The position numbers were made by a program, and so were the translations under genes. A stretch of 64,000 bases of DNA from Candidatus Bathyarchaeia archaeon (GTDB lineage Archaea; Thermoproteota; Bathyarchaeia; TCS64), in assembly GCA_050014495.1 (NCBI GenBank), contig JBEKDF010000004.1:1-64000 (forward strand), given 5' to 3'. Below, piece after piece: positions 15,750 to 61,821 of this stretch (position 1 is its first letter; every line of letters starts with the position of its first letter). Below the pieces are notes generated by a model that did not search any database, was not told the DNA's origin, and worked only from the letters and a program-made list of their open reading frames with translations.

Positions 15750-15759
15750 GCGCGCGCGC
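15750..15759. repeat. (GC)5 tract
   Basis: GCATGCGCGCGCGC, intergenic. Confidence 0.9.
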
Positions 15760-15768
15760 CTTTATAAG
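15753..15768 (+). promoter_or_regulatory. putative TATA promoter of the mbf1 operon, directly abutting a (GC)5 tract
   Basis: GCGCGCC-TTTATAAG about 35 nt upstream of ATG 15800. Confidence 0.5.
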
Positions 15769-15799
15769 CCGATTTAACTCTCAATATTGGGGCTTCGAT

Positions 15800-16312
15800 A
15801 TGCGCTGCGAGGTATGCGGTAGAGAAATTTTGGGGCCTCCTCAGCGAAGAATAATTGAGGGGGCGAAGCTAACGGTCTGCTCTAGATGCGCCTCCTTTGG
15901 TACCTCCGATTGGGCACCTGGCAGACCAACTCCGACAAAGACGCCGAGCAGGTCACAATTAACTTCGATGCCCGCCGCCCGTCCAAGAATGAGGAATGAT
16001 GTAGAATCAGTCGAACAACTAGAGCTAATCGAGGATTACGGTACGCAGATCAGGAAGGCCCGCCAAAAACTAGGTCTATCTGAGAAGGATCTGGCCAAGA
16101 AGATGCAGGAGAAAGACTCCGTGATTAAGAACCTCGAGAAGATGGAACTAACCCCCGACAACAAGCTCATCACCAAGATCAGGAAGTACCTCGGCCTCGA
16201 CATAGTGGAGCACACCGACGTATCTAAGTCCCAGATACTCGCAAAGCCTACGGGTGCGAAGACTATCGGGGATATGCTCCGCATAGACTCGGAGAAGAGC
16301 GAGAAGCCTTAA
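15800..16312 (+). CDS. multiprotein bridging factor aMBF1
   Basis: MRCEVCG..IEGAKL.VC..CA.FG zinc ribbon plus HTH; start reassigned to ATG 15800. Confidence 0.92.
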   Translation: MRCEVCGREILGPPQRRIIEGAKLTVCSRCASFGTSDWAPGRPTPTKTPSRSQLTSMPAARPRMRNDVESVEQLELIEDYGTQIRKARQKLGLSEKDLAKKMQEKDSVIKNLEKMELTPDNKLITKIRKYLGLDIVEHTDVSKSQILAKPTGAKTIGDMLRIDSEKSEKP

Positions 16313-16905
16313 TGGCGCGGGAAATGGAGCCAAAAAGCATAGTTATTTTAATATCTGGCACCCCTGGCACTGGGAAGACAACTGTTTCTTCGCTACTTTC
16401 CCGGGAGTTGCATGGTGAACATATAGATCTTACTCATCTCGTCAAGGAGAGGGGATTAAGCCAAGGCTGGGACGATATACGCGCAACAACAATAGCCGAT
16501 TTAAAGGCTCTACGCATCGCAGTCGTCAAAATATTGGATGACTCTAAGAAGCCAGTCATCATTGATGGCCACTATTCCCCTGACATCGTATCCCGCGAAA
16601 AAGTCACCCTTATCATTGTGTTAAGACGCGCTCCCTGGGTTCTGAGGGAAGATCTCAGGGCTCGAGGATACAGCCCAATAAAAATTCGTGAGAACGTTGA
16701 GGCCGAGCTCCTCGGTACCTGTCTCGTCGACGCTTTAGCCACACAAGATACTAGAAAAATATGCGAGATCGACACAACAAGAATGGATCCCAAGGAAACA
16801 GTTAAGCTGATAATTGCCATCCTCGAAGGGGATACGGATTGCCACCACGGGGTCATCGACTGGATGAACTTTCCTGAAGTTGAGACGCTTCTAGGGGAGC
16901 TTTAA
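16312..16905 (+). CDS. AK6/Fap7-type adenylate kinase
   Basis: ISGTPGTGKTT, IIDGH, RGYS..KIRENVEAE. Confidence 0.9.
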   Translation: MAREMEPKSIVILISGTPGTGKTTVSSLLSRELHGEHIDLTHLVKERGLSQGWDDIRATTIADLKALRIAVVKILDDSKKPVIIDGHYSPDIVSREKVTLIIVLRRAPWVLREDLRARGYSPIKIRENVEAELLGTCLVDALATQDTRKICEIDTTRMDPKETVKLIIAILEGDTDCHHGVIDWMNFPEVETLLGEL

Positions 16906-16908
16906 AAA

Positions 16909-17136
16909 ATGTACATAGTGGTCCGCTGCCCTAGGTGCGGAGAGCTCATGCTTGCGAACACAGCTAACCAGACAAGGTCCTGCCCAAACTGTAACAACCG
17001 AGCCGAGCTCAAGACACTCCGCATCTACGGAAAGGCCGAGACTCCTACAGAGGCAACGCAACTCATGAAGTCTCTCAAAGCGAAAGAGGGGGGTGGCGAA
17101 GACTACAAGCCGAGTTTTAAGCGCCTCGATTCATAG
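16909..17136 (+). CDS. DUF1922-like zinc-ribbon protein
   Basis: MYIVVRCPRCG..CPNC. Confidence 0.75.
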   Translation: MYIVVRCPRCGELMLANTANQTRSCPNCNNRAELKTLRIYGKAETPTEATQLMKSLKAKEGGGEDYKPSFKRLDS

Positions 17137-17225
17137 ACTGATAGTTGCACATAGGAATTTCTTGTTGCTCAACTTTCGCATTTTTATACTGGGGGAGGGT
17201 ATCTGTGGTCTAGAGGTTAAACGAA

Positions 17226-17648
17226 ATGGCGGCTGTAACCAGCAGAAGATTCTTCGAGGAACTCGGCCTACTCGTCGGAAAGTCTGTAGCAGTCTTTGAC
17301 ACGACTGGCAAATCCTACGATGGCGAGTTACTTGGGTACGACTCAAATACGCTGAGCATCTGCCTTGGCAACGTTAACACCGAGCGCGGGAAAGTACACA
17401 GGGTCTTTATCGTAGGCGGTAGCGTCGCTCGAATCCTAGCCTCAGAGAGACCATTCAACCTCGAGGGGTTAAAGGAAAGGCTGGAGAAGGTCTTCCCTAA
17501 CATGGTACAGCTAATACCAGAGGCACGAGTCATCATCGTCATGGGAAAGATAAGGCTGAACGAGACTGGTGTTATCGAGGGGACGGGACCAGCTGCGGAT
17601 AGGGTCAGGGATATTTTCCAGAGATTTAAGACCGAGACCCAAGCTTAA
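17226..17648 (+). CDS. Lsm/SmAP3 RNA-binding protein
   Basis: Sm fold plus C-terminal domain (VFPNMV, GVIEGTGPAADRV). Confidence 0.88.
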   Translation: MAAVTSRRFFEELGLLVGKSVAVFDTTGKSYDGELLGYDSNTLSICLGNVNTERGKVHRVFIVGGSVARILASERPFNLEGLKERLEKVFPNMVQLIPEARVIIVMGKIRLNETGVIEGTGPAADRVRDIFQRFKTETQA

Positions 17649-17731
17649 TTTTTTTTAATCGAAAAGTATCGACGTTTTTTTATTACAAATCGCCAAGGTG
17701 AAATACCCGATACCACACACCCTCAGCCTAT

Positions 17732-19348
17732 ATGGCATTCGAGCTAAGGGATAGGGACTTAATGGGCCGGATCGGTCGTCTAAAGACGAAGAGCGGCATC
17801 GTCGAAACCCCCGCTTTTATGCCAGTAATAAACCCCCTTACTCAGGTCATCCCACCGAAAAGGATGAAGAAAGATTTCCATATAGAAATCGTTATCACGA
17901 ATAGCTATCTCGCCAAGAAGAACTTCTCTGAGATCTCCGACCTCGACATCCATAGGCTCCTTGATTATGACGGTGTCGTCATGACTGACTCTGGTGCCTA
18001 CCAGATTCTCGTGTATGGCGGGGTCGAGGTAACTCAGACAGAGATCATCGAGTACCAGAATAAGATACGATCCGATATAGCTGTCATCCTGGACATCCCG
18101 ACAGGTTGGGATGTTCCTCGCGAGAAGGTGGAATATACAGTCAACGAGACGCTCCACCGTGCAGAGGAGGCTATCCCCCTAATAAGAAATAGTGACGCTC
18201 TCTGGGTCGGCCCAATTCAAGGGGGCAGACATCTCGACCTAGTCGCTAAGTCTGCGAATAGTATTGGTAAGATGCCCTTCCAGATTCACGCATTGGGCAG
18301 CCCAACCGAGGTCATGGAACGCTACATGTTCACTGTCCTAGTCGACATGATTGTGGCTGCTAAACGAAACCTCCCTCCTGACCGACCCCTCCACCTCTTT
18401 GGTGCTGGCCACCCAATGATGTTCAGCCTCGCCTCAGCACTAGGCTGCGATCTATTCGACTCTGCTAGCTACGCCTTATACGCCAAGGATGGAAGATACC
18501 TGACCCCCAACGGCACCCTGCGTCTCGAGGACATTAACTACCTTCCATGTAGCTGTCCAGTCTGCAGGAAGTACTCAGCGGAGGAGCTAAAGACCGCAAC
18601 GAGGGGCGAGAGGGAGAGGCTTCTCGCTGAGCATAACCTCCACGCTTGTGCAATAGAGATAGAAGCTGTAAAGCAAGCCATATTCGAGGGGAGTCTCTGG
18701 GACCTAGTTGAAAGGAGAAGTAGAGGACATCCCGCCATGACTTCGGCCTTAAAGAGGCTCCGGGAGTATCAAGTTGACCTTGAGAGAGGTAGCCCCACAT
18801 TCAAGGGTCATGGTGTATTTTATTACGACTACCATAGCCTCGCCCGCCCCGAAATAAAGCGATACACACGTCTACTCAATCAGAACTATAAGAGACCCGT
18901 TGGAACGGAGGCCCTCATCCTAATTACTGCCCCCTCGCACAAACCCTTCGACGGAAGCGATGAGTACAGACACCTTAGGCAGAAACTCTACAACGAATTA
19001 GGAGAGGACCTAGATCGATTCCACTTTTGTTTCTATGCTGCCCCGTACGGGCCCATACCAGCGGACCTATCGGAGACATACCCACTGTCCCAGTTTGAGA
19101 TAGCGACTCCACTTGACATAGAGACGATCCGATACTCTGCAAGCGCCGTTGCCAGCTTCGTTGCATGTAGTAACTATAGGACTATCTTTCTCTACAGAGG
19201 AAGGGGTGAACTAGATGATGATGTGGAGTCTGCCCTAATGGACGCCTGCGAGAGGGCCAAGATAAACCTCACCACGATCTGGAATAACGATCCATGGGAA
19301 GCCAACGCCTTCTCTGCCCTCTGCAACACACTCAAAACTCGAAGGTAG
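17732..19348 (+). CDS. tgtA: archaeosine tRNA-guanine(15) transglycosylase lacking PUA
   Basis: ETPAFMPV, MTDSGAYQ, LDIPTG, HLFGAGHP, DLFDSA, CSCPVC, EHNL. Confidence 0.93.
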   Translation: MAFELRDRDLMGRIGRLKTKSGIVETPAFMPVINPLTQVIPPKRMKKDFHIEIVITNSYLAKKNFSEISDLDIHRLLDYDGVVMTDSGAYQILVYGGVEVTQTEIIEYQNKIRSDIAVILDIPTGWDVPREKVEYTVNETLHRAEEAIPLIRNSDALWVGPIQGGRHLDLVAKSANSIGKMPFQIHALGSPTEVMERYMFTVLVDMIVAAKRNLPPDRPLHLFGAGHPMMFSLASALGCDLFDSASYALYAKDGRYLTPNGTLRLEDINYLPCSCPVCRKYSAEELKTATRGERERLLAEHNLHACAIEIEAVKQAIFEGSLWDLVERRSRGHPAMTSALKRLREYQVDLERGSPTFKGHGVFYYDYHSLARPEIKRYTRLLNQNYKRPVGTEALILITAPSHKPFDGSDEYRHLRQKLYNELGEDLDRFHFCFYAAPYGPIPADLSETYPLSQFEIATPLDIETIRYSASAVASFVACSNYRTIFLYRGRGELDDDVESALMDACERAKINLTTIWNNDPWEANAFSALCNTLKTRR

Positions 19349-19411
19349 ACACACACGCATGAATCCTTATCCCTCAAACCATTTAGGGGTAGCCCTAGTG
19401 GGAAGGTATAA

Positions 19412-19530
19412 GTGCATGAAAAACATAGATGCACCGTCCCCCCAGGGGGTTAGAAAGGCCACCGGGGAAAGGACTCGACGATCCGTAGGCATTAGCCTGT
19501 AAACAGCGGGTCGCTTCGTTGCCTAGGCAA
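19412..19530 (+). ncRNA. putative structured RNA or 5' leader
   Basis: GC-rich intergenic stretch with consecutive hairpins downstream of a TATAAG (see findings). Confidence 0.35.
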
Positions 19531-19543
19531 GGTATAGATAGCA

Positions 19544-20803
19544 ATGGTAAAGTTAGAATTCATGGGTGGAACCCATGAGGTAGGTCGTAATGCGATTGTG
19601 CTTCAGTCGAATGAAGCAAAGTTATTATTGGAATACGGTGTTAAGGTCGGGGAGCCGACTGAGTTCCCCGCCCATGTCAGGGCAAAGGACATCGACGGTA
19701 TAGTATTGGCTCACGCTCATCTCGACCACAGCGGTGGCGTGCCCATGTTCTACCTCTCAGAGAGGAAACCTCTCTTCTGCACATCCACGACAGCGGACAT
19801 CTCTAAGTTACTCATAGAAGACATGATTAAACTCAACAATTACTACCTCCCATTCGAATATATCGAACTCGACAACATGATGAAGCAGAGAAATGACCTT
19901 GCCTATGGGCAGGAGGTCAAACTCAAGGATATCAACTTCAATCTACAGAACGCGGGCCACATCCCTGGATCCGCCATGGTAGACCTCGAGGTCAACGGCA
20001 AAAGCATCCTCTACACTAGCGACTTCAACACAATAGAGACACGCCTCTGCACCGCAGCAAAGGTCCCCAAGAAGAAGTACGACACGGTTATAATCGAATC
20101 AACATACGCGACTCACGAGCACCCTGAGAGGAAGCAGCTCGAGATAGAATTCGTTAAGGCGGTCAAGGATGTCGTCAACGATGGCGGCAAGGTCCTTATC
20201 CCCGCCTTCGCCGTGGGTCGGAGCCAGGAGATGTTCAGCATCCTCCACGCCCACGGCTTCGAGGGCGCTGTCGTACTCGACGGAATGGCTCGTGCGGTAG
20301 ACCGAATCCTCCTCGAAAGACAAGAGGCGGTTAAGACCCCTGCACAGTTCGAGCAGGCGTGTATGAGAGTACAGGAGGTACGTGGCTGGAGAGACCGGAG
20401 GAAGGCGATTAGCCAGGCGAATGTCATAGTCGCCCCTAGTGGTATGCTTCAGGGAGGCACAGCTGTCTTCTATATGGAGAAGCTTGGCTTCCGCCCCGAG
20501 AACGCGATCTTCCTCGTCAGTTTCCAAGTTCCGGGCACGGGGGGCTCCAAACTCATGGAGCAGGGTACCTTCAACATCGCCGAGAAGGATGAGAAGGTCA
20601 CAGCCAAGGTTCGCCACTTCGACTTCAGTAGCCACACCGGCGCTACACCCCTTCAAAACTTTATTAAAGGACTCAAGGGAAAACCAGACCTCTACGTCAT
20701 CCACGGCGAGCCTGATAGCTGTGACTACCTCGCCCAATGGGCGCAGGATGAGTGCGGCCTAAAGGCAACAGCTCCAAATTTGGGCGACGAGTTCGAGGTC
20801 TAA
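19544..20803 (+). CDS. beta-CASP MBL-fold ribonuclease
   Basis: GGTHEVGR, HAHLDHSG, NAGHIPGS, ESTYA, PAFAVGRSQE, SGMLQGG, FSSH, IHGE. Confidence 0.92.
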   Translation: MVKLEFMGGTHEVGRNAIVLQSNEAKLLLEYGVKVGEPTEFPAHVRAKDIDGIVLAHAHLDHSGGVPMFYLSERKPLFCTSTTADISKLLIEDMIKLNNYYLPFEYIELDNMMKQRNDLAYGQEVKLKDINFNLQNAGHIPGSAMVDLEVNGKSILYTSDFNTIETRLCTAAKVPKKKYDTVIIESTYATHEHPERKQLEIEFVKAVKDVVNDGGKVLIPAFAVGRSQEMFSILHAHGFEGAVVLDGMARAVDRILLERQEAVKTPAQFEQACMRVQEVRGWRDRRKAISQANVIVAPSGMLQGGTAVFYMEKLGFRPENAIFLVSFQVPGTGGSKLMEQGTFNIAEKDEKVTAKVRHFDFSSHTGATPLQNFIKGLKGKPDLYVIHGEPDSCDYLAQWAQDECGLKATAPNLGDEFEV

Positions 20804-20862
20804 CCCCAACCGAAAGGCTAAATATTAGCCTCTATTTCTCTTGTCAAGACACGGTGGCAGGT

Positions 20863-21057
20863 ATGCCGAAAGAAATCACTAACATTGACGAGTTCCTCAA
20901 GCTATCGGAGAAGGCGAGTGAGTGCAAGGTTAAGAAGCTCGGCGAGATAACGAAGCTCAAGCTGAGAACTCCTGGCAACCTATTCACCATAAAACTCGAG
21001 GCGAAGGCAGCTGAAGAGCTCCTCGCAAAACTAACCTGTCTCAAGACCGAGTTGTAA
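20863..21057 (+). CDS. rpl38e: ribosomal protein L38e
   Basis: MPKEITNIDEFLKL..C.VKK....TKLKLRT...LFTIK. Confidence 0.88.
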   Translation: MPKEITNIDEFLKLSEKASECKVKKLGEITKLKLRTPGNLFTIKLEAKAAEELLAKLTCLKTEL

Positions 21058-21201
21058 TTCGGCCTGGCCTTTTAGACCTGGTGCCAACGGCACAATTAAT
21101 CAATTGAATGAAGAACCAATATCCAATTCTAAATCAGACGTGGAGGGAAAAACAAGCTAAGTTAGCGATTGTTGGGGGGAGGGTGGGTGGGGGAGAATTC
21201 T

Positions 21202-23970
21202 ATGTACGACGAATGCGCCTTATCGAGGGTCGATGAGGTCTATGCACGCCTCCAGTCAGGGCCAGGCGGTCTGACCATGGAGGAGGTAGCTGCACGGCTT
21301 CAGAATTATGGCCCCAACAAGCTACCCTCCGCTAAGAAGAGGAGCCTCACGAGCAGGATGATCCTCCAGATTAGAAATGCCTTCAACTTGCTGCTTCTAT
21401 TCGCCTCAGCTCTAAGCTTTTTTAGTGGATACACTTATGGAGACCCCGGCTCGGTGCAGATGGGTGCCGCGATATTAGCGGTCGTAATAATTAATGTAGT
21501 CTTTAGCATCTTCCAGGAGACCCGCGCTGAGCAGGCCGTCCAGACTATCACCAAGCTCATCCCAACTAAGGCAAAGGTCTTCCGTGCCAATGTCGAAGTT
21601 GCGATAGAAGTTTCGGACATTGTGCCCGGCGACATCGTTGTCCTCGACGAGGGTGACAGGGTCCCCGCCGACCTCCGCCTCATCAGCGCCTTCGAGGTCT
21701 CGGTTGACAACTCGATCCTCACCGGTGAGTCGGAAGCGCTGAGGCGCTTCGTCGACATGACACCAGAGATGACTGTCAACAACGTTGTGGAGTATCAAAA
21801 CCTCCTCTTCGCGGGCTCCACTATAGTATCCGGCGTGGTGAGGGGCATCGTCCTGACGACGGGGAAGGACACTGTATTCGGGCGAATAGTCACCCTTTCG
21901 AGTCAGATCGAGGACCCTCTTAGCCCTCTGCAAAAAGACATCGATAGAACGGCAAAGGTCAACCTCTTCCTCTCCATTGTAGTGGGTGCCCTCTTTTTTC
22001 TCGTCGCGAAAACCTTCGTCAATCTCACCGTGATAGAGAGTATACTCTTCGCCATAGGTGTGATGATCAGCCTCGTTCCTGAGGGCTTCCAGCTCACCGT
22101 ATCGCTTAGCCTAGCCATCACTGCCCTCGGCATGGCGAAGAGGAATGTCATTGTAAAACGACTATCAGCCATTGAGACAATCGGTTCCATGACCGTCCTC
22201 TGCGTAGACAAAACAGGAACAATAACGAGTGGAGAGATGATGGTTGAGAAGCTCTGGACCAGCGGAAAGGTCTTCGATGTGAGCGGCGACGGGTACAGTC
22301 CCGAGGGCTTCGTCACCATCCAAGGAAGGAGGATGAACCAGGAAGAGAGACCCCACCTCATGAGCCTCTTTGAGGTATCTGCTTTCTGCACAAACGCAAA
22401 GCTCGTCGCTCCAACCGACAGAATAGGGCGTTGGTCGGTACTAGGAGACCCAACGGACGGCGCCTTCCAAGTTTTTGCAGGCAAGGGAGACTTTAACGCC
22501 GCGATCGCCTTAGCAGAGACTCCACGCATAGATCTCATTCCATTCGACTCCACGAGAAGGATGATGACCGTCATCCATGGAGCCTCTAGTGGCGCCATGA
22601 AGGCGTACACAAAAGGCTCATGCTACGATGTCTTGGCACGCTGTACCTCCATCTCCTATAAGGGAAGGAATGAACATCTCACCGAGACCATGATGGCTGA
22701 GATAAACCGCATGATAACCTCTTTCGCCTCAGACGGATATAGGGTCCTAGCCATGGCATCGAAGGAGCTACCCCAAGGTATGGCAACATCTGAAGAGGCT
22801 GAGAAGGAAATGACCTTCCTGGGACTCGCAGCGCTTCACGATCCGCCGAGACCGAAGACAGAGGCCGCTGTTCTCCATGCCAAAAGCGCGGGTGTTAAGG
22901 TCATCATGATTACTGGCGACCATGAACTCACAGCTGAGGCCGTGGCCAGGAAGGTTGGAATTATATCTGACTCCAATCACGCGGCGGTGACAGGCTCTGA
23001 ACTTAACAAGATGAGCGACGAGGAGCTCTCACGTATTCTCGACACCAGAGAGATGGTGTTCGCAAGAACGACTCCTGAACATAAGTTGAGGGTCGTTAAA
23101 GCCCTTATGGCGAAGGGGGAGATAGTAGCCGTGACGGGGGATGGGGTTAACGACTCCCCCGCCCTCATCGAGGCAAACGTGGGCATCGCCATGGGTGCAG
23201 GTGGTACCGACGTTGCACGTGAGTCCGCAGACATAGTTCTCTTGGACAATGACTTCACTTCAATCGTCGAGGGACTAAGACTTGGTAGGGCAACATACGA
23301 TAACCTACGCAAGTTCGTCTACTACGTCTACACTCACAACTTCGCTGAGCTTGTCACATTCGTCGCCTTCATAATACTCGGTATCCCGCTTCCACTTCTG
23401 GTAATACAGGTCCTGGCCATTGACTTATTACTAGAAATACCCGTCTCCCTTGCCCTTATCACGGAGGCCCCGGAGCCAGACGTTCTGGAGAAGCCGCCGA
23501 GGGCGAGAAACATCAAGTTGATGGATAGCAAGACGCTCGGTAGGGCAGCTGTCATCGGTGTAATAGTCGGTGCCACCGCGGTACTATACGCCTTCAACGT
23601 CTGGGGTCGGGGAGGATGGTATTACGGTTCCATCACATTGATCGATTCACGGATATACGCGATGGGCACGACAGCGGTGCTGGTTGGAATTATGGCGGGT
23701 CAGTTAGGGAATCTTATTTCGACACGAGTCGGCCTTCACTCGGCGTTAAAATCGAACCCATTTAGCAATAGGTGGATACCCATAGGTGTACTTGTTGAGC
23801 TGGGGATGCTTGCACTTATTGTCTACGCACCGTTCCTACAGCCCATTTTCGGTACCGCGGCACTGTCTCCTGTGGATTGGCTAGTTCTTTTCATATTGGT
23901 GCCCCTCGTCCTCCTGATCGACGAGTCGAGGAAATACCTTACGCGTCGGTTAACCAAGAAGAAGCGCTGA
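21202..23970 (+). CDS. type II cation-transporting P-type ATPase
   Basis: LTGES, VPEG, DKTGT, MITGD, TGDGVNDSPAL. Confidence 0.95.
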   Translation: MYDECALSRVDEVYARLQSGPGGLTMEEVAARLQNYGPNKLPSAKKRSLTSRMILQIRNAFNLLLLFASALSFFSGYTYGDPGSVQMGAAILAVVIINVVFSIFQETRAEQAVQTITKLIPTKAKVFRANVEVAIEVSDIVPGDIVVLDEGDRVPADLRLISAFEVSVDNSILTGESEALRRFVDMTPEMTVNNVVEYQNLLFAGSTIVSGVVRGIVLTTGKDTVFGRIVTLSSQIEDPLSPLQKDIDRTAKVNLFLSIVVGALFFLVAKTFVNLTVIESILFAIGVMISLVPEGFQLTVSLSLAITALGMAKRNVIVKRLSAIETIGSMTVLCVDKTGTITSGEMMVEKLWTSGKVFDVSGDGYSPEGFVTIQGRRMNQEERPHLMSLFEVSAFCTNAKLVAPTDRIGRWSVLGDPTDGAFQVFAGKGDFNAAIALAETPRIDLIPFDSTRRMMTVIHGASSGAMKAYTKGSCYDVLARCTSISYKGRNEHLTETMMAEINRMITSFASDGYRVLAMASKELPQGMATSEEAEKEMTFLGLAALHDPPRPKTEAAVLHAKSAGVKVIMITGDHELTAEAVARKVGIISDSNHAAVTGSELNKMSDEELSRILDTREMVFARTTPEHKLRVVKALMAKGEIVAVTGDGVNDSPALIEANVGIAMGAGGTDVARESADIVLLDNDFTSIVEGLRLGRATYDNLRKFVYYVYTHNFAELVTFVAFIILGIPLPLLVIQVLAIDLLLEIPVSLALITEAPEPDVLEKPPRARNIKLMDSKTLGRAAVIGVIVGATAVLYAFNVWGRGGWYYGSITLIDSRIYAMGTTAVLVGIMAGQLGNLISTRVGLHSALKSNPFSNRWIPIGVLVELGMLALIVYAPFLQPIFGTAALSPVDWLVLFILVPLVLLIDESRKYLTRRLTKKKR

Positions 23971-23974
23971 AACT

Positions 23975-24430: not shown

Positions 24431-24485
24431 ACGTAGCCCTCAGTTTAGATTTAAAGAATCTCAGTAAAAAGAGGCTCATAGATGT

Positions 24486-27280: not shown

Positions 27281-27401
27281 ATCAGCAGTTGCAGGGGGTC
27301 GGGAGCTTATAACCCCTACTCCGGTGAACCAAATTGAGTTTTTTTTTTGAGACAATCACTTTTTTTGGAAGGTTTTAATACCCGCGCGATAAGGGATTAC
27401 T

Positions 27402-27927: not shown

Positions 27928-28032
27928 GCGCGCCTCTCGTATCCGGTTTAATGTCAACGGCGTATTTCCCTGATGACCCCACCATCCTCGAGTCTCATGA
28001 TACGGGCTGAGACACTCGCTTACACGAGTTGA

Positions 28033-36155: not shown

Positions 36156-36164
36156 GCGCGCGCG
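36156..36164. repeat. (GC)n tract, 9 bp
   Basis: GCGCGCGCG, intergenic. Confidence 0.9.
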
Positions 36165-44515: not shown

Positions 44516-45073
44516 ATGTCTGTAATAGAGTTCGAAGGTAAGAAGCCGAAGATCCATCCAAGCGTTTTCTTGGCCCCAGGCAGCTGGGTCATTGGCGACG
44601 TTACTCTGGACGAGGACGTAAACGTCTGGACGAATGCCGTGATACGTGGGGACGACGACAACGTTGTGATAGGTGCTCGCACAACCGTGCTTGAGGGATG
44701 TCTGATCGAGGCACCAACGGGCAACCCCGTCAGCATTGGTAAGGATGTAATCGTGAGTCATGGAGCCACGGTTCATGGTGCCAAGATCGGGGATAACGCT
44801 ATAATTGGCATTCAGGCCATCGTTCTCGATAGGGCTGAGATCGGGGAGGGGGCGATGGTGGGATCCGGTGCCCTCGTGAGCCCGCGGAAGATTATTCCCC
44901 CAAGGATGGTCGCCCTCGGAATTCCTGCTGAGCCGAAGAATGATGTCACTGAGGCTACCGTCCAGTATATGGCGAAGGAGCGGGAAAGGACCCTTAGCAA
45001 GGCGAAGGTGTACAAGCAGATTTATCATGAGCTCGAGCACGCGCGCTCGTCTGGGCACTTCTATTCTTCCTAA
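44516..45073 (+). CDS. gamma-carbonic-anhydrase-like hexapeptide-repeat protein
   Basis: PKIHPSVF, VIGDV, IRGD, HGATVHG; first metal His appears replaced (LIEA). Confidence 0.85.
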   Translation: MSVIEFEGKKPKIHPSVFLAPGSWVIGDVTLDEDVNVWTNAVIRGDDDNVVIGARTTVLEGCLIEAPTGNPVSIGKDVIVSHGATVHGAKIGDNAIIGIQAIVLDRAEIGEGAMVGSGALVSPRKIIPPRMVALGIPAEPKNDVTEATVQYMAKERERTLSKAKVYKQIYHELEHARSSGHFYSS

Positions 45074-50895: not shown

Positions 50896-50918
50896 TGGGT
50901 CACCGTTATAGAGGGAAT

Positions 50919-52052: not shown

Positions 52053-52060
52053 GCGCGCGC
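52053..52060. repeat. (GC)4 tract
   Basis: TTGCGCGCGCCAA, intergenic. Confidence 0.9.
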
Positions 52061-52070
52061 CAAATGTTAC

Positions 52071-53006: not shown

Positions 53007-53027
53007 TCCCGCACACGCGAGCTGCAT

Positions 53028-53222
53028 CTAGATTTTGGCCACGTTTATTGTCTCAGAGGCGAATAAATCCTCCACCTTGAACAGGGATTCAACTAGCCCT
53101 TGCTCCGATGAGTAATTGATGAAGGCTTTGAGGATCTTGCGGTTCGCGTCCAGTTCGTAGGGCCAATAGTTCTGATCCATGATTCATATGGTCTCCTCGA
53201 GTTCAGGGATCATCCAAGGCAT
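53028..53222 (-). pseudogene. C-terminal fragment of a 4,5-dihydroxyphthalate decarboxylase-like/SsuA-like binding protein
   Basis: PWMIPELEET*..YWPY..ANR..L...INYS.EQGL....VEDLFA; internal TGA; 5' end missing. Confidence 0.6.
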
Positions 53223-53266
53223 GCGCGCTCGACACACCTTTAAGTCGGAAAATTAAAGATATCACT

Positions 53267-54127: not shown

Positions 54128-54514
54128 CCACATCAAGTTCACTAGACTATTGAAGTGCGCGATTTCTATGAACTTTTGTTCTAATTCATCGTCAGCAAGG
54201 CTCTTAAGCCCAGGCTAGCTTTGAGCAGTATTCGAGGGTGGAAATAGATAGGAGTTGCAACCTCCGCCCTTCTTTAAATCGATGGGGCTGAAGAGGCCCC
54301 CCAAAACTCGTTTAATATGGATCCTCTTTAGGGCTCCTTACCATAAGGAGTGTGTGCGTGAGGATCGGTACAAGTCTTAAGTACGCTATGAATCGATCGA
54401 ATTCTAAACCAGGTGTTCACGAATTGCATAGAATAACCGCGCTAATACTGGGAATCCTATGATTATCAGCGATCGCCAACTCATTAACCATTCCTAGAGC
54501 GTCAAGCGCCAGAT

Positions 54515-54522
54515 CGCGCGCG
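54515..54522. repeat. (CG)4 tract
   Basis: ATCGCGCGCGGAT, intergenic. Confidence 0.9.
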
Positions 54523-54665
54523 GATTTTGTCAATTACATGAAGAGGACGAGACTCTTGATTTCAAGCGCCCCCGATTGAATTAATCTCAATCAGAGACAC
54601 TTGTTGGAAAAAAACCATTTAACATTAATGATTGATCCCTTTAACTAGTCACTAGGTGAGTCAAA

Positions 54666-55631: not shown

Positions 55632-55679
55632 ATCTAGTAAAAGAAGGCGCAGAGGATACGTGCGGGCGAAAAAAGGAGA

Positions 55680-56852
55680 CTAAGATGCTGTGACCTTGAA
55701 GGTCTTGAAACCCTCACTCATTAAATGAATCGTGTAGCTGTTTCCCTTGACCGGTGTCACAGCTACCTTGGGAGATTTATCTCGGCCATCAACATGTAGA
55801 CTTATAACCCCGTTGAAGGTTAGCGTCGCCGAATTACCCGGCTTTAGGACCAATCTTGATGTGCCCCAGTCACCCATCGGATTCATGTCACCGAATATAG
55901 GAGTCAGGGTGTCACCACTGATTTTGAAGGGTATGGAGTCGGGTCTGTCCATCCCCATGAAGCCCCATGGCATACCACCCATGCCTGGCTTACCCGACTT
56001 GTCCTTTCCATTCTGCTGTCCATAACCTGCGATGGTAGAGGTGACGTTGAAGTCGCCACTGAGAGTGATGCTGGAGATCGTTGCGTTGGCTTTGCCAATG
56101 TTCTTGATGGTCACACTGAGAGTTGTGACGTTGCCCTTGACTGAGAGACTCGACGAAGTCACCGTAATGTTGTTCGAGGCTCTGCGGTACTCCTGACTCA
56201 GCTTGTTGTTATCATCATCGCCTATCCTCCATTTTGCGCCGACTTGTGTCTGAGTATCGAGAACGTTAGATTTGACTATCGCTGTTGCGCTCGGAGATAA
56301 AACGAAGTAGCTCACCAAGCTTCCAGTCGAGTTCATCGCGTTGATCTGGACGAGTGTTGGCCTTAGATCGATCAGGGCACCAGTCTTCGTTCCATTCAAC
56401 TTCGTTTCTCTTAGTGAGACCAGTAGATTATCGGAGAGCATCGTCACTGGGTATACTTTATCGCTTACCTTCGCCTCAGCTGCGGAGATCTCGAACTGAA
56501 GTTTATCCACTGTTGAGCCTGTGGGAAGACTTAGAGTAGCAATTGTTTGGGTCATGTTTACAAGTGAGAGTAGATTTACCCTACCCGACTCTTGGGCTGC
56601 AACCCAATTTGATGAGCCGTCGCTGGCTACAACGTGGAGCTGGATGCTTGAATAGGTCACGTTAAGTTGAGTAGTTCCCCTTGGAACGTTTGGTGGGTCA
56701 GTTAGCATGACGAGGAAACTCGTCTGACCTGTTTGTGTTGTCATACTCGTTGGATTCAACGCCGTGTTGGCGTAGAGGGATGTCCCGATGATGGCCAGAG
56801 CCACAATAACCGCGGCTGCACCATACTTCAAGGAAAGTCTCTTCGTTGCCAT
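55680..56852 (-). CDS. DUF4382-like secreted protein
   Basis: signal/TM then VMLTDPP.VP..T.LNVTYS...H; VNLLSLVN. Confidence 0.72.
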   Translation of the reverse strand: MATKRLSLKYGAAAVIVALAIIGTSLYANTALNPTSMTTQTGQTSFLVMLTDPPNVPRGTTQLNVTYSSIQLHVVASDGSSNWVAAQESGRVNLLSLVNMTQTIATLSLPTGSTVDKLQFEISAAEAKVSDKVYPVTMLSDNLLVSLRETKLNGTKTGALIDLRPTLVQINAMNSTGSLVSYFVLSPSATAIVKSNVLDTQTQVGAKWRIGDDDNNKLSQEYRRASNNITVTSSSLSVKGNVTTLSVTIKNIGKANATISSITLSGDFNVTSTIAGYGQQNGKDKSGKPGMGGMPWGFMGMDRPDSIPFKISGDTLTPIFGDMNPMGDWGTSRLVLKPGNSATLTFNGVISLHVDGRDKSPKVAVTPVKGNSYTIHLMSEGFKTFKVTAS

Positions 56853-56959
56853 CTACATTTACCTAAACAATAGGCGTCTCGACTTTGTATATGATGCTAC
56901 ACATTTTAATGACTTTTCAGGGTATTTGAAGACCCGTTCAAGATCCTTGAATGGCGTTG

Positions 56960-57406
56960 TTAATCATTTGTTTGCCTGTTAGCGGAGTCAACAACTAGCC
57001 TACGCCACAACCTGAGAGACTCATACCAGAGGAGAACGACCATCGCTAGGGAAGCTGTGATGAGATAAATCGTGAATCCAGTGGATAGGAGGGATTCAAG
57101 TGAAAAGAATACGATCAGGATCGTGAACAGAACGGCGAAGAAGAGGAACTGTGGAACCAGGGCAGTTCCCACCTTAACATATCCCTCCAAGATCTCGGTG
57201 GATGACTCCTCCGAGGCAACGTACCTGCCCTCCTCATCTTGTCTCACGTATCCGGCTTCGACGAGTCTACTAAGGTGGTACGATGCCAATGAAGGAGTTG
57301 ATAGTCCTACGCCCCTCTGAACATCCCTGAGACCACTTGGACCATGTGTGACAAGGTAAAGGTACGTCCTTAGGGCGTTTCCTGTGATCTCTTTAGTTTT
57401 TTTCAA
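56960..57406 (-). CDS. membrane-anchored winged-HTH regulator
   Basis: LRTYLYL..GLRDVQRGVGLSTPSLASYHL.RL...G followed by two TM helices. Confidence 0.8.
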   Translation of the reverse strand: MKKTKEITGNALRTYLYLVTHGPSGLRDVQRGVGLSTPSLASYHLSRLVEAGYVRQDEEGRYVASEESSTEILEGYVKVGTALVPQFLFFAVLFTILIVFFSLESLLSTGFTIYLITASLAMVVLLWYESLRLWRRLVVDSANRQTND

Positions 57407-57756
57407 GGCTGTTCACCTGGCGTACGTGATACCGTTTATTACTTGAGTCGAGATCGATAGGGTGTCTCTTTCCAGTCCAATACGCCTACCATACCGTTCA
57501 CGTTTGCGTAGCGTTGATGCCTGACCTCCGAGAGTAACGCTTTGGTGAACAAGTTTTGGAGATGCTCCTATTGTTATAATATAAATCCCACAATGGAACA
57601 AGGTACCTTATAGCGTCTTCTGAATCAGAATATGTATCTAAAATCAATCAAATATCCACTTCTTAACTATAGTGTGTTCACGCTTTGGTAGTCTGAATCT
57701 TGGGTTTTCCTGTGGACAATATTTAGTGTTTATTTGTGGCTCTGTCGAGTGGCTAC

Positions 57757-58659
57757 TTAAATAACAACTTGCTCCCCAGGTACTCTTCTGAAAATTTGTA
57801 CATCACCGACATGGCTAGCCTTTGTCAGGAACCTTACGAGTCTCTCGATCCCGAAGCCTGCTCCAGCTGAGGGTATAAATCCCTTCTTTGCCTCAGCGAC
57901 GTAGGCGTCGTATATTCTCATGTTAAGTCTGTCTTTTCCCATCCTCTCAATGATGCGCTTGTAATCGTATTCTCGTTCCGCGCCGGATAGGGCTTCACCA
58001 AATCCCTGTGGGTATACGAGATCGTAGTTCAGGTAATGACCGGGATTTGATTCATCCTCCTTATCGTAGAATTCTCTCTTGTGGCATAGAGCCCAGAATG
58101 GTTGTTCATTTGCAATCGATGCCTCTTTCTCCCAGTCTTTACCGTATTTGCTCTCTAATTCATGGGTTGTGTAAACCTTGAATGGTGTTTTGAACTCGAA
58201 GGGACGGACACCGATGCTCTCAAAGAGATCAAGGTAATTCTTCAGCTTCTCACCTAGAAATTCGAAGTATTTACCCATCAAAGACATCACATCCTCCTTT
58301 TTACCATTCGCGATCTCAAAGTCTAGCTGGGTAAACTCAAACAGATGCTTTCCCGATACTATTCTCTCGGCCTTCTCTAGTCTAATGTTGGGAGAGAAGA
58401 TGAAGATCTTACCGAGGTTCTTGACGGCAACCTGCTTGTGTAGAATCATCGAATTCATAGTGTAGAGAAGCATTCCATTGTACTCAATCTCAGGAGTCTT
58501 GATTATTGACGATCCTGGATCAGGGCCAAGGGGATCGGTGCTTCTACCCAGTATGACGGGTAGCAATTGAACAAAGCCTTGTTCGTGGAAGAAGTCCGAA
58601 GTAAGCTTTAGTACCGCACTTCCGATCTCGATTCTCGTTGTTAATTCTGGTACTTGCAT
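57757..58659 (-). CDS. asnA: archaeal asparagine synthetase A (AspRS-derived)
   Basis: TDPLGPDP, SMILHKQ, SPNIRLE, GKHLFEFTQLD, GEALSGAEREY, PSAGAGFGIERL. Confidence 0.9.
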   Translation of the reverse strand: MQVPELTTRIEIGSAVLKLTSDFFHEQGFVQLLPVILGRSTDPLGPDPGSSIIKTPEIEYNGMLLYTMNSMILHKQVAVKNLGKIFIFSPNIRLEKAERIVSGKHLFEFTQLDFEIANGKKEDVMSLMGKYFEFLGEKLKNYLDLFESIGVRPFEFKTPFKVYTTHELESKYGKDWEKEASIANEQPFWALCHKREFYDKEDESNPGHYLNYDLVYPQGFGEALSGAEREYDYKRIIERMGKDRLNMRIYDAYVAEAKKGFIPSAGAGFGIERLVRFLTKASHVGDVQIFRRVPGEQVVI

Positions 58660-58969
58660 CTAGATCTCAGAAAAACGTATCATCGCTGCATATTAAGATT
58701 TATACAATAATATTGGAGTAATTTCATTATAATAGTTTTTTTCATCATTGGAATTGTAATAAATACAAAAAATGATGCGAAGTTAAGAAACATGTATGGA
58801 GGCAAATTAGGATTTTTAATTGCGTTGAACATGTGCACACGAACTGTTATGAAGTTATTATTAGACCTTGTCGCTCACTATTCACAGCGATTATTTTACA
58901 TGCTTTATTCTATTTTTAAGGGGCGTTCGTGCTTGCGACACATGAATTTAGACTAGGTGATGATTGATA

Positions 58970-60073
58970 CTAGACATTGTTGATGATGTGCGAGAAAGCT
59001 GCTAGAATAATTGAGGTCATTATTAAGAATAATCCGGAGATGACCCCTATTATCAAAACGAATGCAGCTGGGAGGCTTAGTGTTTGGAGATTCAGGTATG
59101 TGGTGAGTAGGTAAGCTCCGGCGGAGATTCCGATAGCCAATGCGAATAGACCGGGGAGCCCGAAGAAGAGGTAAGATTTATTCGACATGGTTATTATGAA
59201 GCTTTGAGATGTTCCCTGGTCCTTCGGCTTTTCCTGGGTTTTTGATTGTTGAGTGACTCCTGTTTGGGATATGGGTGCCTCTTCCGTTTGTGTCTCGTAA
59301 TCGTTTGTATTGAATGGTTCTCTCTGTATCTCGATCGGGACCTCCCTTAGGATGAGTCCGTTACCGGAGGCTATTCCAAGGATCCTAGAGTGGCTCTCTA
59401 GGACTTCTGTGGGGGCTGAGAGGAAGGCTCTTAGGGATTTCTGGGAAAACGCCATGAAGATGCTCGGTAGATCATCTTCGTCGACTGTCTCGGATCGATT
59501 TGTTCCATTTGGTTGTTGGGTTCCAAAGACCACGTCTGCCTCTCTCGATTTGATTAGGGAGAGGATCTTCGGTATCTCTGAGGGTTGAAGGTTGGGGTCT
59601 ACATCCATTATCAGGATCATTGCTGGGTCCAGTTCGAGTGAGCGTTCAAGGAGGGTTCGGAGTGTCGCGAGGCGTCCGAGGCTGGTCTCGTGTCGGATCA
59701 CTGTGGCGCCTAGGCCTGCGGCTACTTGCCCCATGAGATCTTCGGAGCCGTCATCGCATACTAGAATTCGGTCAAAGTATTGCTTAGATTTGATGATAAG
59801 TGGTCCTATCTCCTTCTCTTCGTTGTAGGCTGGGATGCAGAGAAGGGTTGTGATTGGTTTAATCGGGGGTTGTGGGGAGTGTATCAGTTGAGGCATGTAT
59901 GTGGCCTCGTTTCTCGCTTCAACCATCTCAACACGTTGTGATGGGTTCGGAGGAGCCTCCGCTGAGGTTTTTGATTTTTTAGTTACTCGTTTTCTGTCTG
60001 GCTTTGAGATTGACTGCATCTTCTTTTTTACTACCTTCGTTTTAACGAAGTTTAATCCGCTATCTGTGTCCAT
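58970..60073 (-). CDS. GT2 glycosyltransferase-like protein with C-terminal TMs (divergent)
   Basis: CIPAYNEE, VCDDGS.D, VIRH, MDVD, EVPI, FFGLPG. Confidence 0.75.
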   Translation of the reverse strand: MDTDSGLNFVKTKVVKKKMQSISKPDRKRVTKKSKTSAEAPPNPSQRVEMVEARNEATYMPQLIHSPQPPIKPITTLLCIPAYNEEKEIGPLIIKSKQYFDRILVCDDGSEDLMGQVAAGLGATVIRHETSLGRLATLRTLLERSLELDPAMILIMDVDPNLQPSEIPKILSLIKSREADVVFGTQQPNGTNRSETVDEDDLPSIFMAFSQKSLRAFLSAPTEVLESHSRILGIASGNGLILREVPIEIQREPFNTNDYETQTEEAPISQTGVTQQSKTQEKPKDQGTSQSFIITMSNKSYLFFGLPGLFALAIGISAGAYLLTTYLNLQTLSLPAAFVLIIGVISGLFLIMTSIILAAFSHIINNV

Positions 60074-60205
60074 GTATTAAACCCCTTAGAATTTCTTTAC
60101 TGTTGGACCTGATTTTCCCCTAGTTCCATTTACTTGATTAGAATAAAATGCATTATGGATATGTAATAGCTAATACGGATTTCAAAATAATGAATTGTAT
60201 ATCAT

Positions 60206-60215
60206 GCGCGCGCGC
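60206..60215. repeat. (GC)5 tract
   Basis: ATGCGCGCGCGCACGTT. Confidence 0.9.
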
Positions 60216-60263
60216 ACGTTGATTATAATTACGTCACACAATCTTACTAGAGAAGTTGACCTT

Positions 60264-60509
60264 ATAAGTGCCACCGCAACTACCAAGAAAACCGACTATA
60301 TCGCTGTGCTAGTCGCTTACATGAGCTTCGTCGTGCTGGGGATACCAAGCGCGATGCGCGCGCGCATCGGTATAGGTGTCTTTCCCGGCATCGCAGGGGT
60401 TCTTGCCGACCGCAGTAGCTTGGAGGCAATACTCTTCGTATTATTTGCGCTGTCAATCATGATGATGATCTTATACGAGTTGACTATTCGAGCGCATTTG
60501 GGGGTGTAG
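60264..60509 (+). pseudogene. MFS transporter remnant (first and last helices fused)
   Basis: AYMSFVVLGIPSAM joined via (GC)5 to IGIG.FP.IAGVLADR.SLEAI; ATA where a start is expected. Confidence 0.6.
60352..60369. repeat. 18-bp perfect palindrome centred on (GC)5
   Basis: CGATGCGCGCGCGCATCG. Confidence 0.95.
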
Positions 60510-60644
60510 CGGTCATTGAAGGATCGCGTTGATGAGTTTTAGGATGCGTATACGTGCGCGTAAACTATTACCTCACGTTTACAGGACCCTATATGATAAC
60601 TCCGAGTTTTTTATATATACCGAGGTTTTCTCCAGTCTGTGATA

Positions 60645-60683
60645 CGCGCGCGCATTTTATCTATTTGTAGGTGAGGCGCGCGC
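60645..60683. repeat. two (GC)n tracts (9 and 8 bp)
   Basis: ATACGCGCGCGCAT and GAGGCGCGCGCTC. Confidence 0.9.
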
Positions 60684-60688
60684 TCTGC

Positions 60689-61811
60689 TTATGTAGCATA
60701 TGATAAGTTGAAGGCATTTGTGAGGCTTACTTTCGGTGTGATGCCATCACTTTTTACGAGGTCCCATGTCCACGACATTGTCCCCTTCCAGCCCCAGAAG
60801 TAGGCGGCGTTTACGCCCATGCTGTTGAGTTTAGCAATGTGGCCACTCATGTAGTTGGCGGTTACTACGGGTGTGGTCGCGTAGCCATTCCACTCAGTCA
60901 CATCGACCTTCTTCCCATTGGCGTGAGCCGTGTTGATGTAACTCTGGAGGTCATTCCACCCTGATCCCCAGACGGTGTAACTTGGGTTCCGGTGGTCTAG
61001 ATACTCATTCACGAAGGCGACATCGAGGGTGTCAATAGTCTGTGATGTTGTGAATTTTTTAAGCCCAGAGAGGTCGAATCTGACTCCTACCAATACATCT
61101 GGCTTAATAGACTTGACGAATGCTCTCGCATCAGTCCATAGCTGGACTGTCTGCGTCTTCTGTGTCGTCGTCATTGTGTATCTTGAGGGCTCATTCAGCA
61201 CGGAAACGGATTCGATGGGAAGGTCGGATATCTTCTGTATTGTATACCTGATCCAGTTGAGATACTGTGTCTTTCCTGATCCGTTGAGGATTAACCTAGT
61301 ATTTCCTCCCAGATTGGTGGGGGTGGCGAATCCGCTAGTGCTTGATGGGAAGAGTGTGTGGAAGTCAAGATGGGCCTTGAGTTCGGCTGTAGCGGCGGCT
61401 TGTAGGACGTGGCGGAGTTTGGTATATTCGCTGGCGATGTAGTTGTCATTTGATGATTCGTAGGTTCCCCAGTAGAGTACCACGCTCACTCGGTCCATTC
61501 CCGCTGACTTGAAGAGCTCGAAGTTGGCCGCGAAGCGGGTTGGTGAGTCTGACTCGTAGTCGGTCCGGTAGTTGACACCGAGGTCAATGCTTGAGTCTGT
61601 CGTTTTAATTGGGGTGATCGAGCTCTGCGTGTACACCGCCTTTAGAGTGTGAGATGAGCCCATTGTTATATAAATTGGGTTCAAGCTCACTGCGTTGTCC
61701 CCATCCTTGATCCAGTGGTCGAAATGGTACCTAGTAGAGAGTGTTGCTGTGACTTTTACGCTAGGTCCGCTTTGGTAAGTTCTTACGCCTGTTCCTGGGC
61801 TGGTTGAGCCA
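60689..61811 (-). pseudogene. 5'-truncated glycoside hydrolase (clan GH-A) with InlB-B-repeat-like domain
   Basis: VLNEP, VTEW, YFWGW; frame extends upstream of GTG 61690 through GSTSPG...YHFDHW...NPI.ITM...HTLKAVY and ends at (GC)5 with no start codon. Confidence 0.7.
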
Positions 61812-61821
61812 GCGCGCGCGC
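61812..61821. repeat. (GC)5 tract
   Basis: GCGCGCGCGCACGTT, sharing 15 bp with the 60206 site. Confidence 0.9.

Follow-up and report, generated by a model that had tools for sequence, protein, structure and literature searches.

The LigD polymerase adds letters at DNA breaks, and Ku/LigD NHEJ places a polymerase of the AEP (primase-family) fold where ends are joined. A mobile relative in the AEP superfamily, the PrimPol AgaPP, belongs to mobile DNA and is capable of terminal transfer and end joining; in the part of the source available, it joins ends through existing microhomology, shows hardly any RNA-templated activity with Mg2+, and is described with neither a fixed repeat nor an RNA of its own (PMC11724360). 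IEE is grouped, in the excerpts available, with the mobile PrimPols that promote microhomology joining. Telomerase carries its template in a structured RNA loop, and interstitial telomeric sequences are short repeats at break sites; according to the accessible portion of that report, about 75% of such loci have at least one host letter in register with the insert (PMC2246262). DRT10, as far as the source was accessible, is a prokaryotic polymerase whose partner non-coding RNA sets the sequence of a tandem repeat; it is a protein-primed, antiviral reverse transcriptase that makes long free DNA, with a SLATT effector encoded in the same operon as enzyme and RNA (10.1101/2025.10.16.682844). Finally, the HIP1 motif of cyanobacteria is described, in the available text, as a strongly over-represented GC-rich 8-bp palindrome conserved in coding and non-coding DNA (PMC5861425).

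The host studied here, an uncultured peat archaeon of the Bathyarchaeia, carries hundreds of short GCGCGCGC runs in its genome (G000). As with telomerase and interstitial telomeric sequences, short repeats stand at break sites and a template in a structured RNA loop is proposed; however, the templating is a proposal here, the inserts are self-complementary and 6-10 bp long, the host is an archaeon, and the candidate enzyme has a primase fold rather than the reverse-transcriptase (TERT) fold. Unlike DRT10, the product lies within chromosomal joints, and no reverse transcriptase (PF00078) was matched in G000. In contrast to HIP1, the tracts avoid intact genes and are new to the lineage at each site, and in contrast to Ku/LigD NHEJ the trait does not track Ku or LigD, which are not present everywhere that the scars are.

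The window, i.e. the whole stretch of 64,000 nucleotides analysed, contains nine alternating GC tracts of, in coordinate order, 10, 9, 8, 8, 10, 10, 9, 8 and 10 bp (Table 1). All of them lie where a preliminary description of this DNA had placed them, four are exactly GCGCGCGCGC as it said, and its shorter sites (15599, 27383, 27928, 53223 and 63921) are all present. The excess over random that it had estimated is upheld against a Markov background: 100 order-2 simulations of the window gave a mean of 0.97 tracts of at least 8 bp (maximum 4), against the nine observed. GCGCGCGC occurs 464 times in the non-coding DNA of the genome against 3.4 expected, compared with 48 against 45.8 in coding DNA. 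Genome-wide there are 459 (GC)n tracts of at least 8 bp (192 of 8 bp, 144 of 9, 111 of 10 and 12 longer), with length nearly capped at 10. That the tracts lie outside intact genes holds for 405 of the 459, with CDS taken from my own simple gene caller and amounting to 81% of the genome, but three window tracts fall within mechanically listed ORFs: 15750 within ORF 15638-16312, upstream of the MBF1-like start, and 60206 and 60356 within a weak ORF of 104 aa. Contigs from independent runs bridge tracts 52053 (X8 and X12), 54515 (X8, X9 and X12), 60356 (an identical X8 contig, 60177-61014), 60645, 60676 and 61812, which are therefore not assembly chimeras. A promoter or terminator role found no orientation bias in its favour (4.8 tracts per 10 kb of tandem spacer, 5.0 divergent, 6.1 convergent), and an origin by hairpin opening was rejected, the palindrome beyond the tracts being, as judged by hand, no higher than flank bias explains.

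Table 1. Tracts, shorter GC sites and strain differences in the window.
Feature	Position	Observation
CGCGCG	15599..15604	ends of two X12 contigs, at 15602 and 15609, with unlike sequence
(GC)5 deletion scar	15750..15759	just upstream of the TATA-like box of an MBF1-like gene; replaces about 640 bp
CGCGCG at 1,208-bp deletion joint relative to G012	27383..27388	
GCGCGC at cut end of hydantoinase B fragment (Pfam)	27928..27933	
9-bp tract	36156..36164	spacer between aminotransferase gene and RimK-like gene (neighbours by Pfam)
7-bp tract, insertion target	45040..45046	541-bp insertion in X12, with 45040-45047 duplicated
8-bp tract at homology break	52053..52060	match to a divergent X11 contig ends at 52054
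AT-GCGCGC in spacer	53223..53228	from sequence only
8-bp tract at fragment end	54515..54522	fragment also on contig C52
2,699 bp missing in strain X12	58328..61026	GCGCGC joins the ends
(GC)5 with AT at left	60206..60215	inside the stretch missing from strain X12
AT-(GC)5-AT	60356..60365	full form expected from the loop word
9-bp tract, then AT	60645..60653	X8 and X11 contigs bridge
8-bp tract	60676..60683	22 bp from the 60645 tract; X8 and X11 contigs bridge
517 bp missing in strain X11	61380..61896	CGCGCGCG joins the ends; one contig, depth 5
(GC)5, strain-variable joint	61812..61821	X9 contig bridges the window form
GCGCGC in spacer	63921..63926	read from the letters alone

Comparison with strains and relatives places the tracts at joints left by deletions and insertions, as newly added sequence that intact copies lack. 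Alignments end within 8 bp of 100 of the 427 non-coding tracts, as against 704 of 11,000 shifted controls, and orthologous sites in relatives lack the tracts. Among 66 informative flanks, 53 have no GCGC/CGCG seed in the intact copy and 13 have one (above the 5% background), while 56 have 0-2 letters in common with the tract, 32 of these 1-2. Four intragenic deletions carry a tract at the joint although the lost part contains none (C5:95744, 169 bp; C33:31600, 451 bp; C60:2627, 316 bp; C58:3359, 183 bp), and 1-8 apparently random extra letters adjoin many tracts. The earlier reading that the genome is remodelled at these sites is supported by deletion, truncation and insertion joints, and the suggested repair that adds self-annealing GC filler fits joints with new GC letters.

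The window provides several such joints. At 15750, where strain X12 has 667 letters and the window 28, relatives G002, G008 and G012 retain a small membrane-protein gene and have a joint without the tract, and homology to relatives restarts at 15759-15760. The ends of the X12 deletion at 58328 and 61026 lie inside open window ORFs and have no GC run. Strain X12 also omits 61390-61821, carries 41 different letters there and rejoins at 61822, and at 27928 both X12 and X16 carry different sequence up to 27931. A paralog match (79%, 144 bp) stops 6 letters short of the 54515 tract, a 178-bp piece with the 45040 tract is missing from G012, and all six letters of the 27383 joint can derive from the two host flanks. 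A tract stands at the joint in only 5 of 24 G000 deletions relative to relatives, and one strain deletion was joined without filler. In both strain deletions (X12, X11) older tracts were lost as well, and either one on its own may therefore represent two deletions flanking a retained tract. A self-comparison for two-sided deletions was dominated by repeat noise, with a tract at 3 of 56, and a metagenome scan with one window protein found no near-identical strain (best 83%).

A covarying hairpin element of about 100 nt occurs in eight copies in G000, several beside integrase genes and two of them 2.3-2.8 kb downstream of a gene for an extra AEP; in G109, G103 and G140 the element lies at the 3' end of the AEP gene. 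Both sides have changed in 7 of 12 stem pairs (3.2 when shuffled, 2-6 when slid), counts made on alignments fitted to the proposed structure and on genomes that are kin. The loop is almost invariant over the copies despite varying stems, the stems keep many G-U type pairs, and the CUGA and UGAUGA-like words are, I presume, a resemblance to box C/D kink-turn RNAs. Rfam had no match for 7 element loci, and an RNA pattern search of 331 genomes was convincing only in G000, G005, G103 and G109, the others being near control level. An RNA model (at most 150 candidates scored per genome) had no match in 8 of the 10 tract-rich genomes tried, nor in G227, the genome richest in CGGCCGGCCG scars, and in G079 a candidate 3' half of the element fell short of significance (E 13). 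Within the window there is no copy of either the element or the AEP gene.

The word in this predicted loop matches scar flanks in several lineages. The G000 loop is GGCGCAT, and AT follows C-ends in 159 of 578 cases (background 9.9%); G016 has the same loop, and the first 100 of its 199 cases include 26 with AT and 6 with TA. The loops of G109 end GCGTA and GCGCTA and TA follows C-ends in 22 of 34. In G011, whose loops end TGCGAAAA, the first 100 of 241 G-ends include 61 with A next and 23 with AA next. From the G140 loop, CCGGCCGTA (a CCGGCCG loop), CGGCCGGCCG scars were forecast before counting: five genomes of that genus have 47, 9, 3, 2 and 1 (1-4 expected for the largest), G000 has 0, and TA is in register at 5 of 7 sites examined. 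Counter to the model, G011 loops contain only GCG, one being GGAGCAT, and the G103 loop ends GCGCGTA, yet the single tract beside its gene ends GCGC-TA.

The candidate enzyme is a 268-aa AEP protein encoded outside the window in integrase-linked DNA (C53:7058-7864). Its modelled fold is PriS-type (pLDDT 91; best Foldseek match Pyrococcus primase, E 5.9e-12), it matches PF01896 above the cut-off, and D99, D101, H154 and D205 are invariant across 64 homologs; predicted fold, DxD, H and third acidic residue all place it in the AEP superfamily. LigD-type structures (5dmu, 2r9l) are among its fold matches, but it is nearer PriS in fold and no Ku adjoins it. Nor is it the replicative primase PriSL: the core priS-priL pair lies at C1:125087-127611, and the candidate is an additional gene found in 11 of 331 genomes, not a single-copy core gene beside PriL. 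Its homologs form 301 clusters at E<=1e-20. The gene is present in 6 of 20 tract-rich genomes versus 5 of 311 others (4 of 18 tract-rich ones without the two query genomes) and unmatched in 14 of the 20, including single-contig G079 and G021 (G079 was also searched in six frames). Scanning viral contigs for the AEP gave no match, and scanning genome contigs gave one locus.

Other enzymes were considered. PolX is found in 93 of 331 genomes, being missing from tract-rich G308, G287, G203 and G227 and present in tract-free ones. The G000 PolB2 is matched strongly in just a few families, and in genomes free of tracts (in G308, G287, G203, G109 and G227 the matches reach just 1e-43 to 1e-52), NurA was not found in G308 or G109, and, by its distribution, another additional AEP (C20, 439 aa) does not track the trait. 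By eye, no other candidate stood out among the listed protein matches common to G000 and G079 (694 plus 238).

The tracts were probably written by the extra AEP, copying the loop of the predicted RNA element onto broken ends whose tails would then pair and be ligated. The element would be transcribed and its predicted RNA bound by the AEP, host DNA ends would pair with 1-2 template letters, and the AEP would copy a few loop letters onto each broken end. Because the G000 loop holds only GCGC, tails of 5-6 letters would require an extra step, either a single cycle of repeat addition or extension of the two tails on one another. The self-complementary tails would then pair and be ligated, and two 6-letter tails with a 2-letter overlap would give the cap at 10. 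I infer repeat addition on DNA 3' ends only from the joints and this length cap. As AEP and element travel on mobile DNA, the scars would outlast the pair; insertion sequences land in them afterwards. I lean, by a little, towards the more general reading that this is a mobile telomerase-like repair of Bathyarchaeia that relies on a primase rather than a reverse transcriptase, in which a small AEP copies the programmable loop of its own putative RNA onto any broken end and so makes all ends mutually sticky; it would drive deletion, capture of stray fragments and gene shuffling, and would leave lineage-specific, loop-readable scars as landing sites to which insertion sequences have adapted. No such telomerase-like primase stitching route was found in the literature on Bathyarchaeia GCGCGC tracts or primase end joining, in a search covering few subscription papers and no bioRxiv supplements.

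It is unlikely, though worth weighing, that the filler is untemplated and comes from a core host enzyme (PriSL or a replicative polymerase) slipping on self-pairing ends, the hairpin element being a site of recombination or targeting that just happens to contain the local repeat word. There are tract-rich single-contig genomes without the extra AEP, G079 is rich in (TAGC)n runs of the kind that self-priming synthesis might give (AGCTAGCT 212 times, 8-fold), and many tracts have apparently random neighbouring letters. However, core enzymes are universal, unlike the trait, whose distribution is patchy down to the level of single genera; the letters at the flanks and the unit of the repeat vary with the loop word, and the loop stays nearly constant where the stems vary. 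I consider it improbable that the element serves the AEP in the form of DNA, single-stranded or as a hairpin, or that the loop guides joining instead of templating it, given the G-U type pairs retained in the stems, the words presumed to be box C/D kink-turn-like and the occurrence of scars genome-wide, distant from the element. Even so, the RNA form of the element is a prediction, and one characterised mobile PrimPol, in the portion of its description available, favours DNA templates and carries out microhomology joining (PMC11724360).

Insertion sequences are very unlikely to have created or moved the tracts by inserting at GCGC seeds, duplicating them and leaving, with repeated one-sided deletions keeping the tract between two new flanks. 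A DDE insertion sequence does insert into tracts: among 104 loose matches to one of its ends, GCGC comes next in 49 and GCGCGC in 45, and a relative in G109 shows the same targeting. The older tracts removed in both strain deletions and the seed-bearing flanks would also suit this account, but the seed is missing at most flanks, the intragenic tracts arose although the part lost from the intact copies has none, and the transposase used as query is unmatched in single-contig G079, which holds 432 tracts. With no seed at most joints and no such match, the tracts do not look like transposon excision footprints, and the proposed element that duplicates CGCG has the direction reversed; the tracts are targets for insertion sequences, which they do not need in order to form. 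It is less probable again that resident Ku/LigD end joining supplies the letters. Ku and LigD, named in the preliminary description as something to look for, are indeed present in a G000 operon with a polymerase domain, Ku and a ligase-phosphoesterase, and Ku occurs in 15 of the family's 24 members and in none of 16 outside it, but the trait does not track either: G021 has neither Ku nor polymerase domain, G079 has no tblastn match to them, and G001 and G010 have both, yet 0-1 nine-mers (both about 35% GC, loci read). Ku/LigD could still ligate stitched ends in genomes having it. Least probable of all are cutting by a GCGCGC nuclease followed by fill-in and blunt-end ligation, a selected motif of the HIP1 kind, and an artefact of the library; the comparisons with intact copies refute them for most joints. 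Ten bp, the commonest long form, does correspond to a filled-in GCGCGC site, but cutting there is unsupported because 53 of 66 intact flanks and both strain break sites lack GCGC/CGCG; a HIP1-like role is likewise unsupported because the tracts are neither enriched in coding DNA nor conserved at orthologous sites, and tracts recur in independent runs and single-contig genomes.

If the proposed templating by the AEP is correct, this protein would be an RNA-templated end-healing enzyme, a telomerase-like chemistry that arose independently of reverse transcriptases, and archaea would possess a way of joining ends that does not depend on homology already being there. Both parts, a protein of 268 aa and an element of about 100 nt, are small, and a programmable pair for end tailing and joining might serve as a tool. 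Should the enzyme prove to be the wrong one, the scars still provide a record of past breaks that can be counted throughout a large uncultured class.

All nine alternating (GC)n tracts of at least 8 bp and all five shorter GCGCGC/CGCG sites listed in the preliminary description are present in the window, which is C4:1-64000 of the studied genome, G000 (3.1 Mb, 92 contigs). Its gene content is archaeal, and the runs containing G000 DNA are mostly peat metagenomes. The suspected excess over composition-matched chance is real, as simulated windows hold on average 0.97 tracts of at least 8 bp (maximum 4 across 100 simulations). The whole genome has 459 such tracts, of 8 bp (192), 9 bp (144), 10 bp (111) or longer (12), so that length is nearly capped at 10 bp. 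Avoidance of genes, earlier judged by eye, also stands: 405 of the 459 lie outside genes called with my own simple gene caller, and GCGCGCGC is enriched 136-fold in non-coding DNA and not at all in coding DNA. A search for gene-orientation bias of the tracts in G000 spacers found none. These spacers often hold one-transition variants such as GCGCACGCGC, and their frequency suggests that they are older, decayed tracts.

The tracts are joints, as had been proposed. Of 427 non-coding tracts in G000, 100 have the end of a self-alignment no more than 8 bp away, compared with 6.4% of shifted controls, and several fragments of 90-908 bp with a copy elsewhere are bounded by tracts on both sides. At the tract at 15750, homology to relatives restarts exactly past the tract end; a small gene at this joint is retained in three of them (G002, G008 and G012), and the window has 28 letters where strain X12, a sequence from an independent run, has 667. 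The surrounding site, 15080-15766, holds a 672-bp stretch between two 7-bp TATA-like repeat copies at a divergent promoter; the stretch is missing in six relatives, and five further relatives hold different content there.

Positions of deletions, joints and genes discussed in the text (unprefixed positions are window coordinates; C numbers are G000 contigs)
Feature	Position	Compared with	Observation
Strain X12 deletion	58328-61026 missing	strain vs window	GCGCGC between ends
Strain X11 deletion	61380-61896 missing	strain vs window	CGCGCGCG between ends
Intragenic tract joint	C5:95744	paralog	lost part without run of at least 6
Intragenic tract joint	C33:31600	paralog	lost part without run of at least 6
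Intragenic tract joint	C60:2627	G012	lost part without run of at least 6
Intragenic tract joint	C58:3359	G012	lost part without run of at least 6
DDE insertion sequence family	C5:82611-83894, C61:6043-7308, many contig ends		strong (GC)n target preference
Extra AEP gene, 268 aa	C53:7058-7864		fragments on five further contigs

Very probably the tracts are filler made de novo at joints. None of the four ends of the X12 and X11 deletions carries a GC run in the window sequence. Taken alone, these two deletions permit a two-step route, because both lost stretches contained older tracts; the four intragenic joints fit that route less easily, given their run-free lost parts. Among 89 paralog flanks, 23 were insertion sequence (IS) ends and were excluded; in 53 of the 66 counted, the intact copy has no GCGC or CGCG at the break, and in 56 of the 66 flank and tract have 0-2 letters in common. 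A GCGC or CGCG seed is present in the other 13, above the 5% background, several of these being duplicated scars or missed IS ends. Stitching with GC letters is not universal. In a comparison that took in some 420 kb of G012 and seven further loci, a tract stands at the joint of 5 of 24 G000 deletions and of 0 of 16 deletions in the relatives, and X12 and strain X16 lack the 696 bp between 21698 and 22395 (21699-22394) inside a P-type ATPase-like gene, with no filler and one letter in common.

Insertion sequences might be thought to make the tracts. Of 104 loose matches in G000 to an end of the 1.27-kb DDE element (PF01609 match, DUF772 weak), 45 adjoin GCGCGC; for a second IS end type the figure is 9 of 12, and a related IS in G109 has the same target behaviour. 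Three elements of the DDE family appear to duplicate 8 bp of target, and others 4-6. G079, a single contig of 39.6% GC, has 432 tracts and no match to the G000 DDE transposase. I read insertion sequences as users of the scars. In G079 (L224-L322) another iterated palindrome, (TAGC)n, is also enriched, 7-8-fold, and frequently adjoins GC tracts; it may be a scar left by a different loop variant. Other repeats in G000 include a multi-copy protein (C80:1669-2646 plus eight fragments), several copies of which are cut at GC tracts and which I take to resemble solo Cas1, and a cluster of 102 related small proteins, which often occur in tandem and have a recurring motif upstream (C50, C53, C72, C74, C75, C77, C84, C88, C90 and others).

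Known enzymes were set aside as tract makers, since the presence of Ku, LigD polymerase, PolX, PolB2, NurA or reverse transcriptase fails to track tract-richness. G000 has a full end-joining operon (C3:64206-67463; L031, L115) of LigD polymerase domain, Ku and a ligase-phosphoesterase fusion, and Ku occurs in 15 of 24 family members versus 0 of 16 genomes outside the family. NurA has three matches in G000 (C9:4106, C35:12566, C2:97397) and was not found in G308 or G109 when searched. A LigD phosphoesterase domain match in G079 (L312:48-437, 57% identity) stands alone, with neither Ku nor a polymerase domain. A PolB2-like gene adjoins a RadA-like gene at G000:C8:32877-36011; its G016 ortholog is split into three pieces.

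The survey of the class took in 331 genomes of 80% completeness or more. At least 60 forward GCGCGCGCG hits occur in 20 of them, spread over five families, and counts differ widely inside single genera. Tract flanks are lineage-specific, AT in G000 and TA in G079 and G109; in G079 the flanking A is often missing from the intact copy.

The candidate enzyme is an extra primase-family protein (AEP), 40% identical to that of G109. Its structure model (pLDDT 91) predicts a PriS fold, and its sequence retains the catalytic residues. Its homologs form 301 clusters, most on short contigs, and its Atlas neighbours are chiefly archaeal. A two-sequence profile matched 12 of the 331 genomes, many matches being fragments; excluding G013, whose match is a different, 453-aa AEP, the gene occurs in 6 of 20 tract-rich and 5 of 311 other genomes (Fisher p 8.5e-6, overstated by kinship), or in 4 of 18 tract-rich genomes once the two query genomes are removed. 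Another extra AEP of G000 (C20:26047-27366) is 439 aa long, has a C-terminal extension and also occurs in G005, G007, G013 and G017.

A common element of ~100 nt forms the end of the AEP gene in G109, G103 and G140; its predicted layout is stem, CTGA, hairpin, GATGA, loop, A-run and closing stem. Its stem pairs covary: in 22 copies from 10 genomes, in an alignment fitted to my own structure, both-sided changes occur in 7 of 12 pairs versus 3.2 when shuffled and 2-6 when slid. Rfam gave no match. The element model detects it in 8 of 71 family genomes; it gave no hit in the window, and of 10 further tract-rich genomes examined, 8 gave none. Of the eight G000 copies, seven have the loop GGCGCATA, and two lie downstream of the AEP gene at a distance of 2.3-2.8 kb. 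Copies at C53:10229 and 10621, C56:4822 and C40:2517 lie across stop codons of two small ORFs, of 93 and 96-98 aa, and not at an AEP end. The C40 and C56 copies have integrase-family genes no more than a few kb away; upstream of the C53 AEP gene such genes match weakly.

In several lineages the loop word matches the scar flanks. In G000, C-ends of tracts are followed by AT in 159 of 578 cases (9.9% expected) and by TA in 36; in G016, where one of three copies has the G000-type loop, AT was counted 26 times and TA 6 times among the first 100 of 199 ends. G109 loops end in GCGTA and GCGCTA, and TA follows 22 of 34 C-ends at the loci read. Three G011 loops end in TGCGAAAA, and the first 100 of 241 G-ends are followed by A in 61 and AA in 23, a weaker match because AA is frequent in spacers. 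The strongest test came from the G140 loop CCGGCCGTA, which prompted a search for CGGCCGGCCG, a 10-mer equal to two CGGCCG tails with a two-letter overlap, in five genomes of its genus. Counts were 47, 9, 3, 2 and 1, with 1-4 expected for the largest, and 0 in G000; two of the three G140 sites are on the AEP contig, and TA stands in register at 5 of 7 sites read. The element was not found in G227, the genome with 47.

On this evidence I lean towards a route through AEP and RNA. The element would be transcribed and its RNA bound by AEP, which would add tails templated by the loop and lengthened by repeat addition; the tails would then anneal and be ligated. A literature search found no paper on GC scars with such a route. 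It would work like telomerase at internal breaks (PMC2246262), and would pair a polymerase with a template RNA, as DRT10 does (10.1101/2025.10.16.682844); it would belong to neither, because the enzyme is a predicted primase-fold protein. The AEP and its element may be a mobile pair, lost after leaving its scars.
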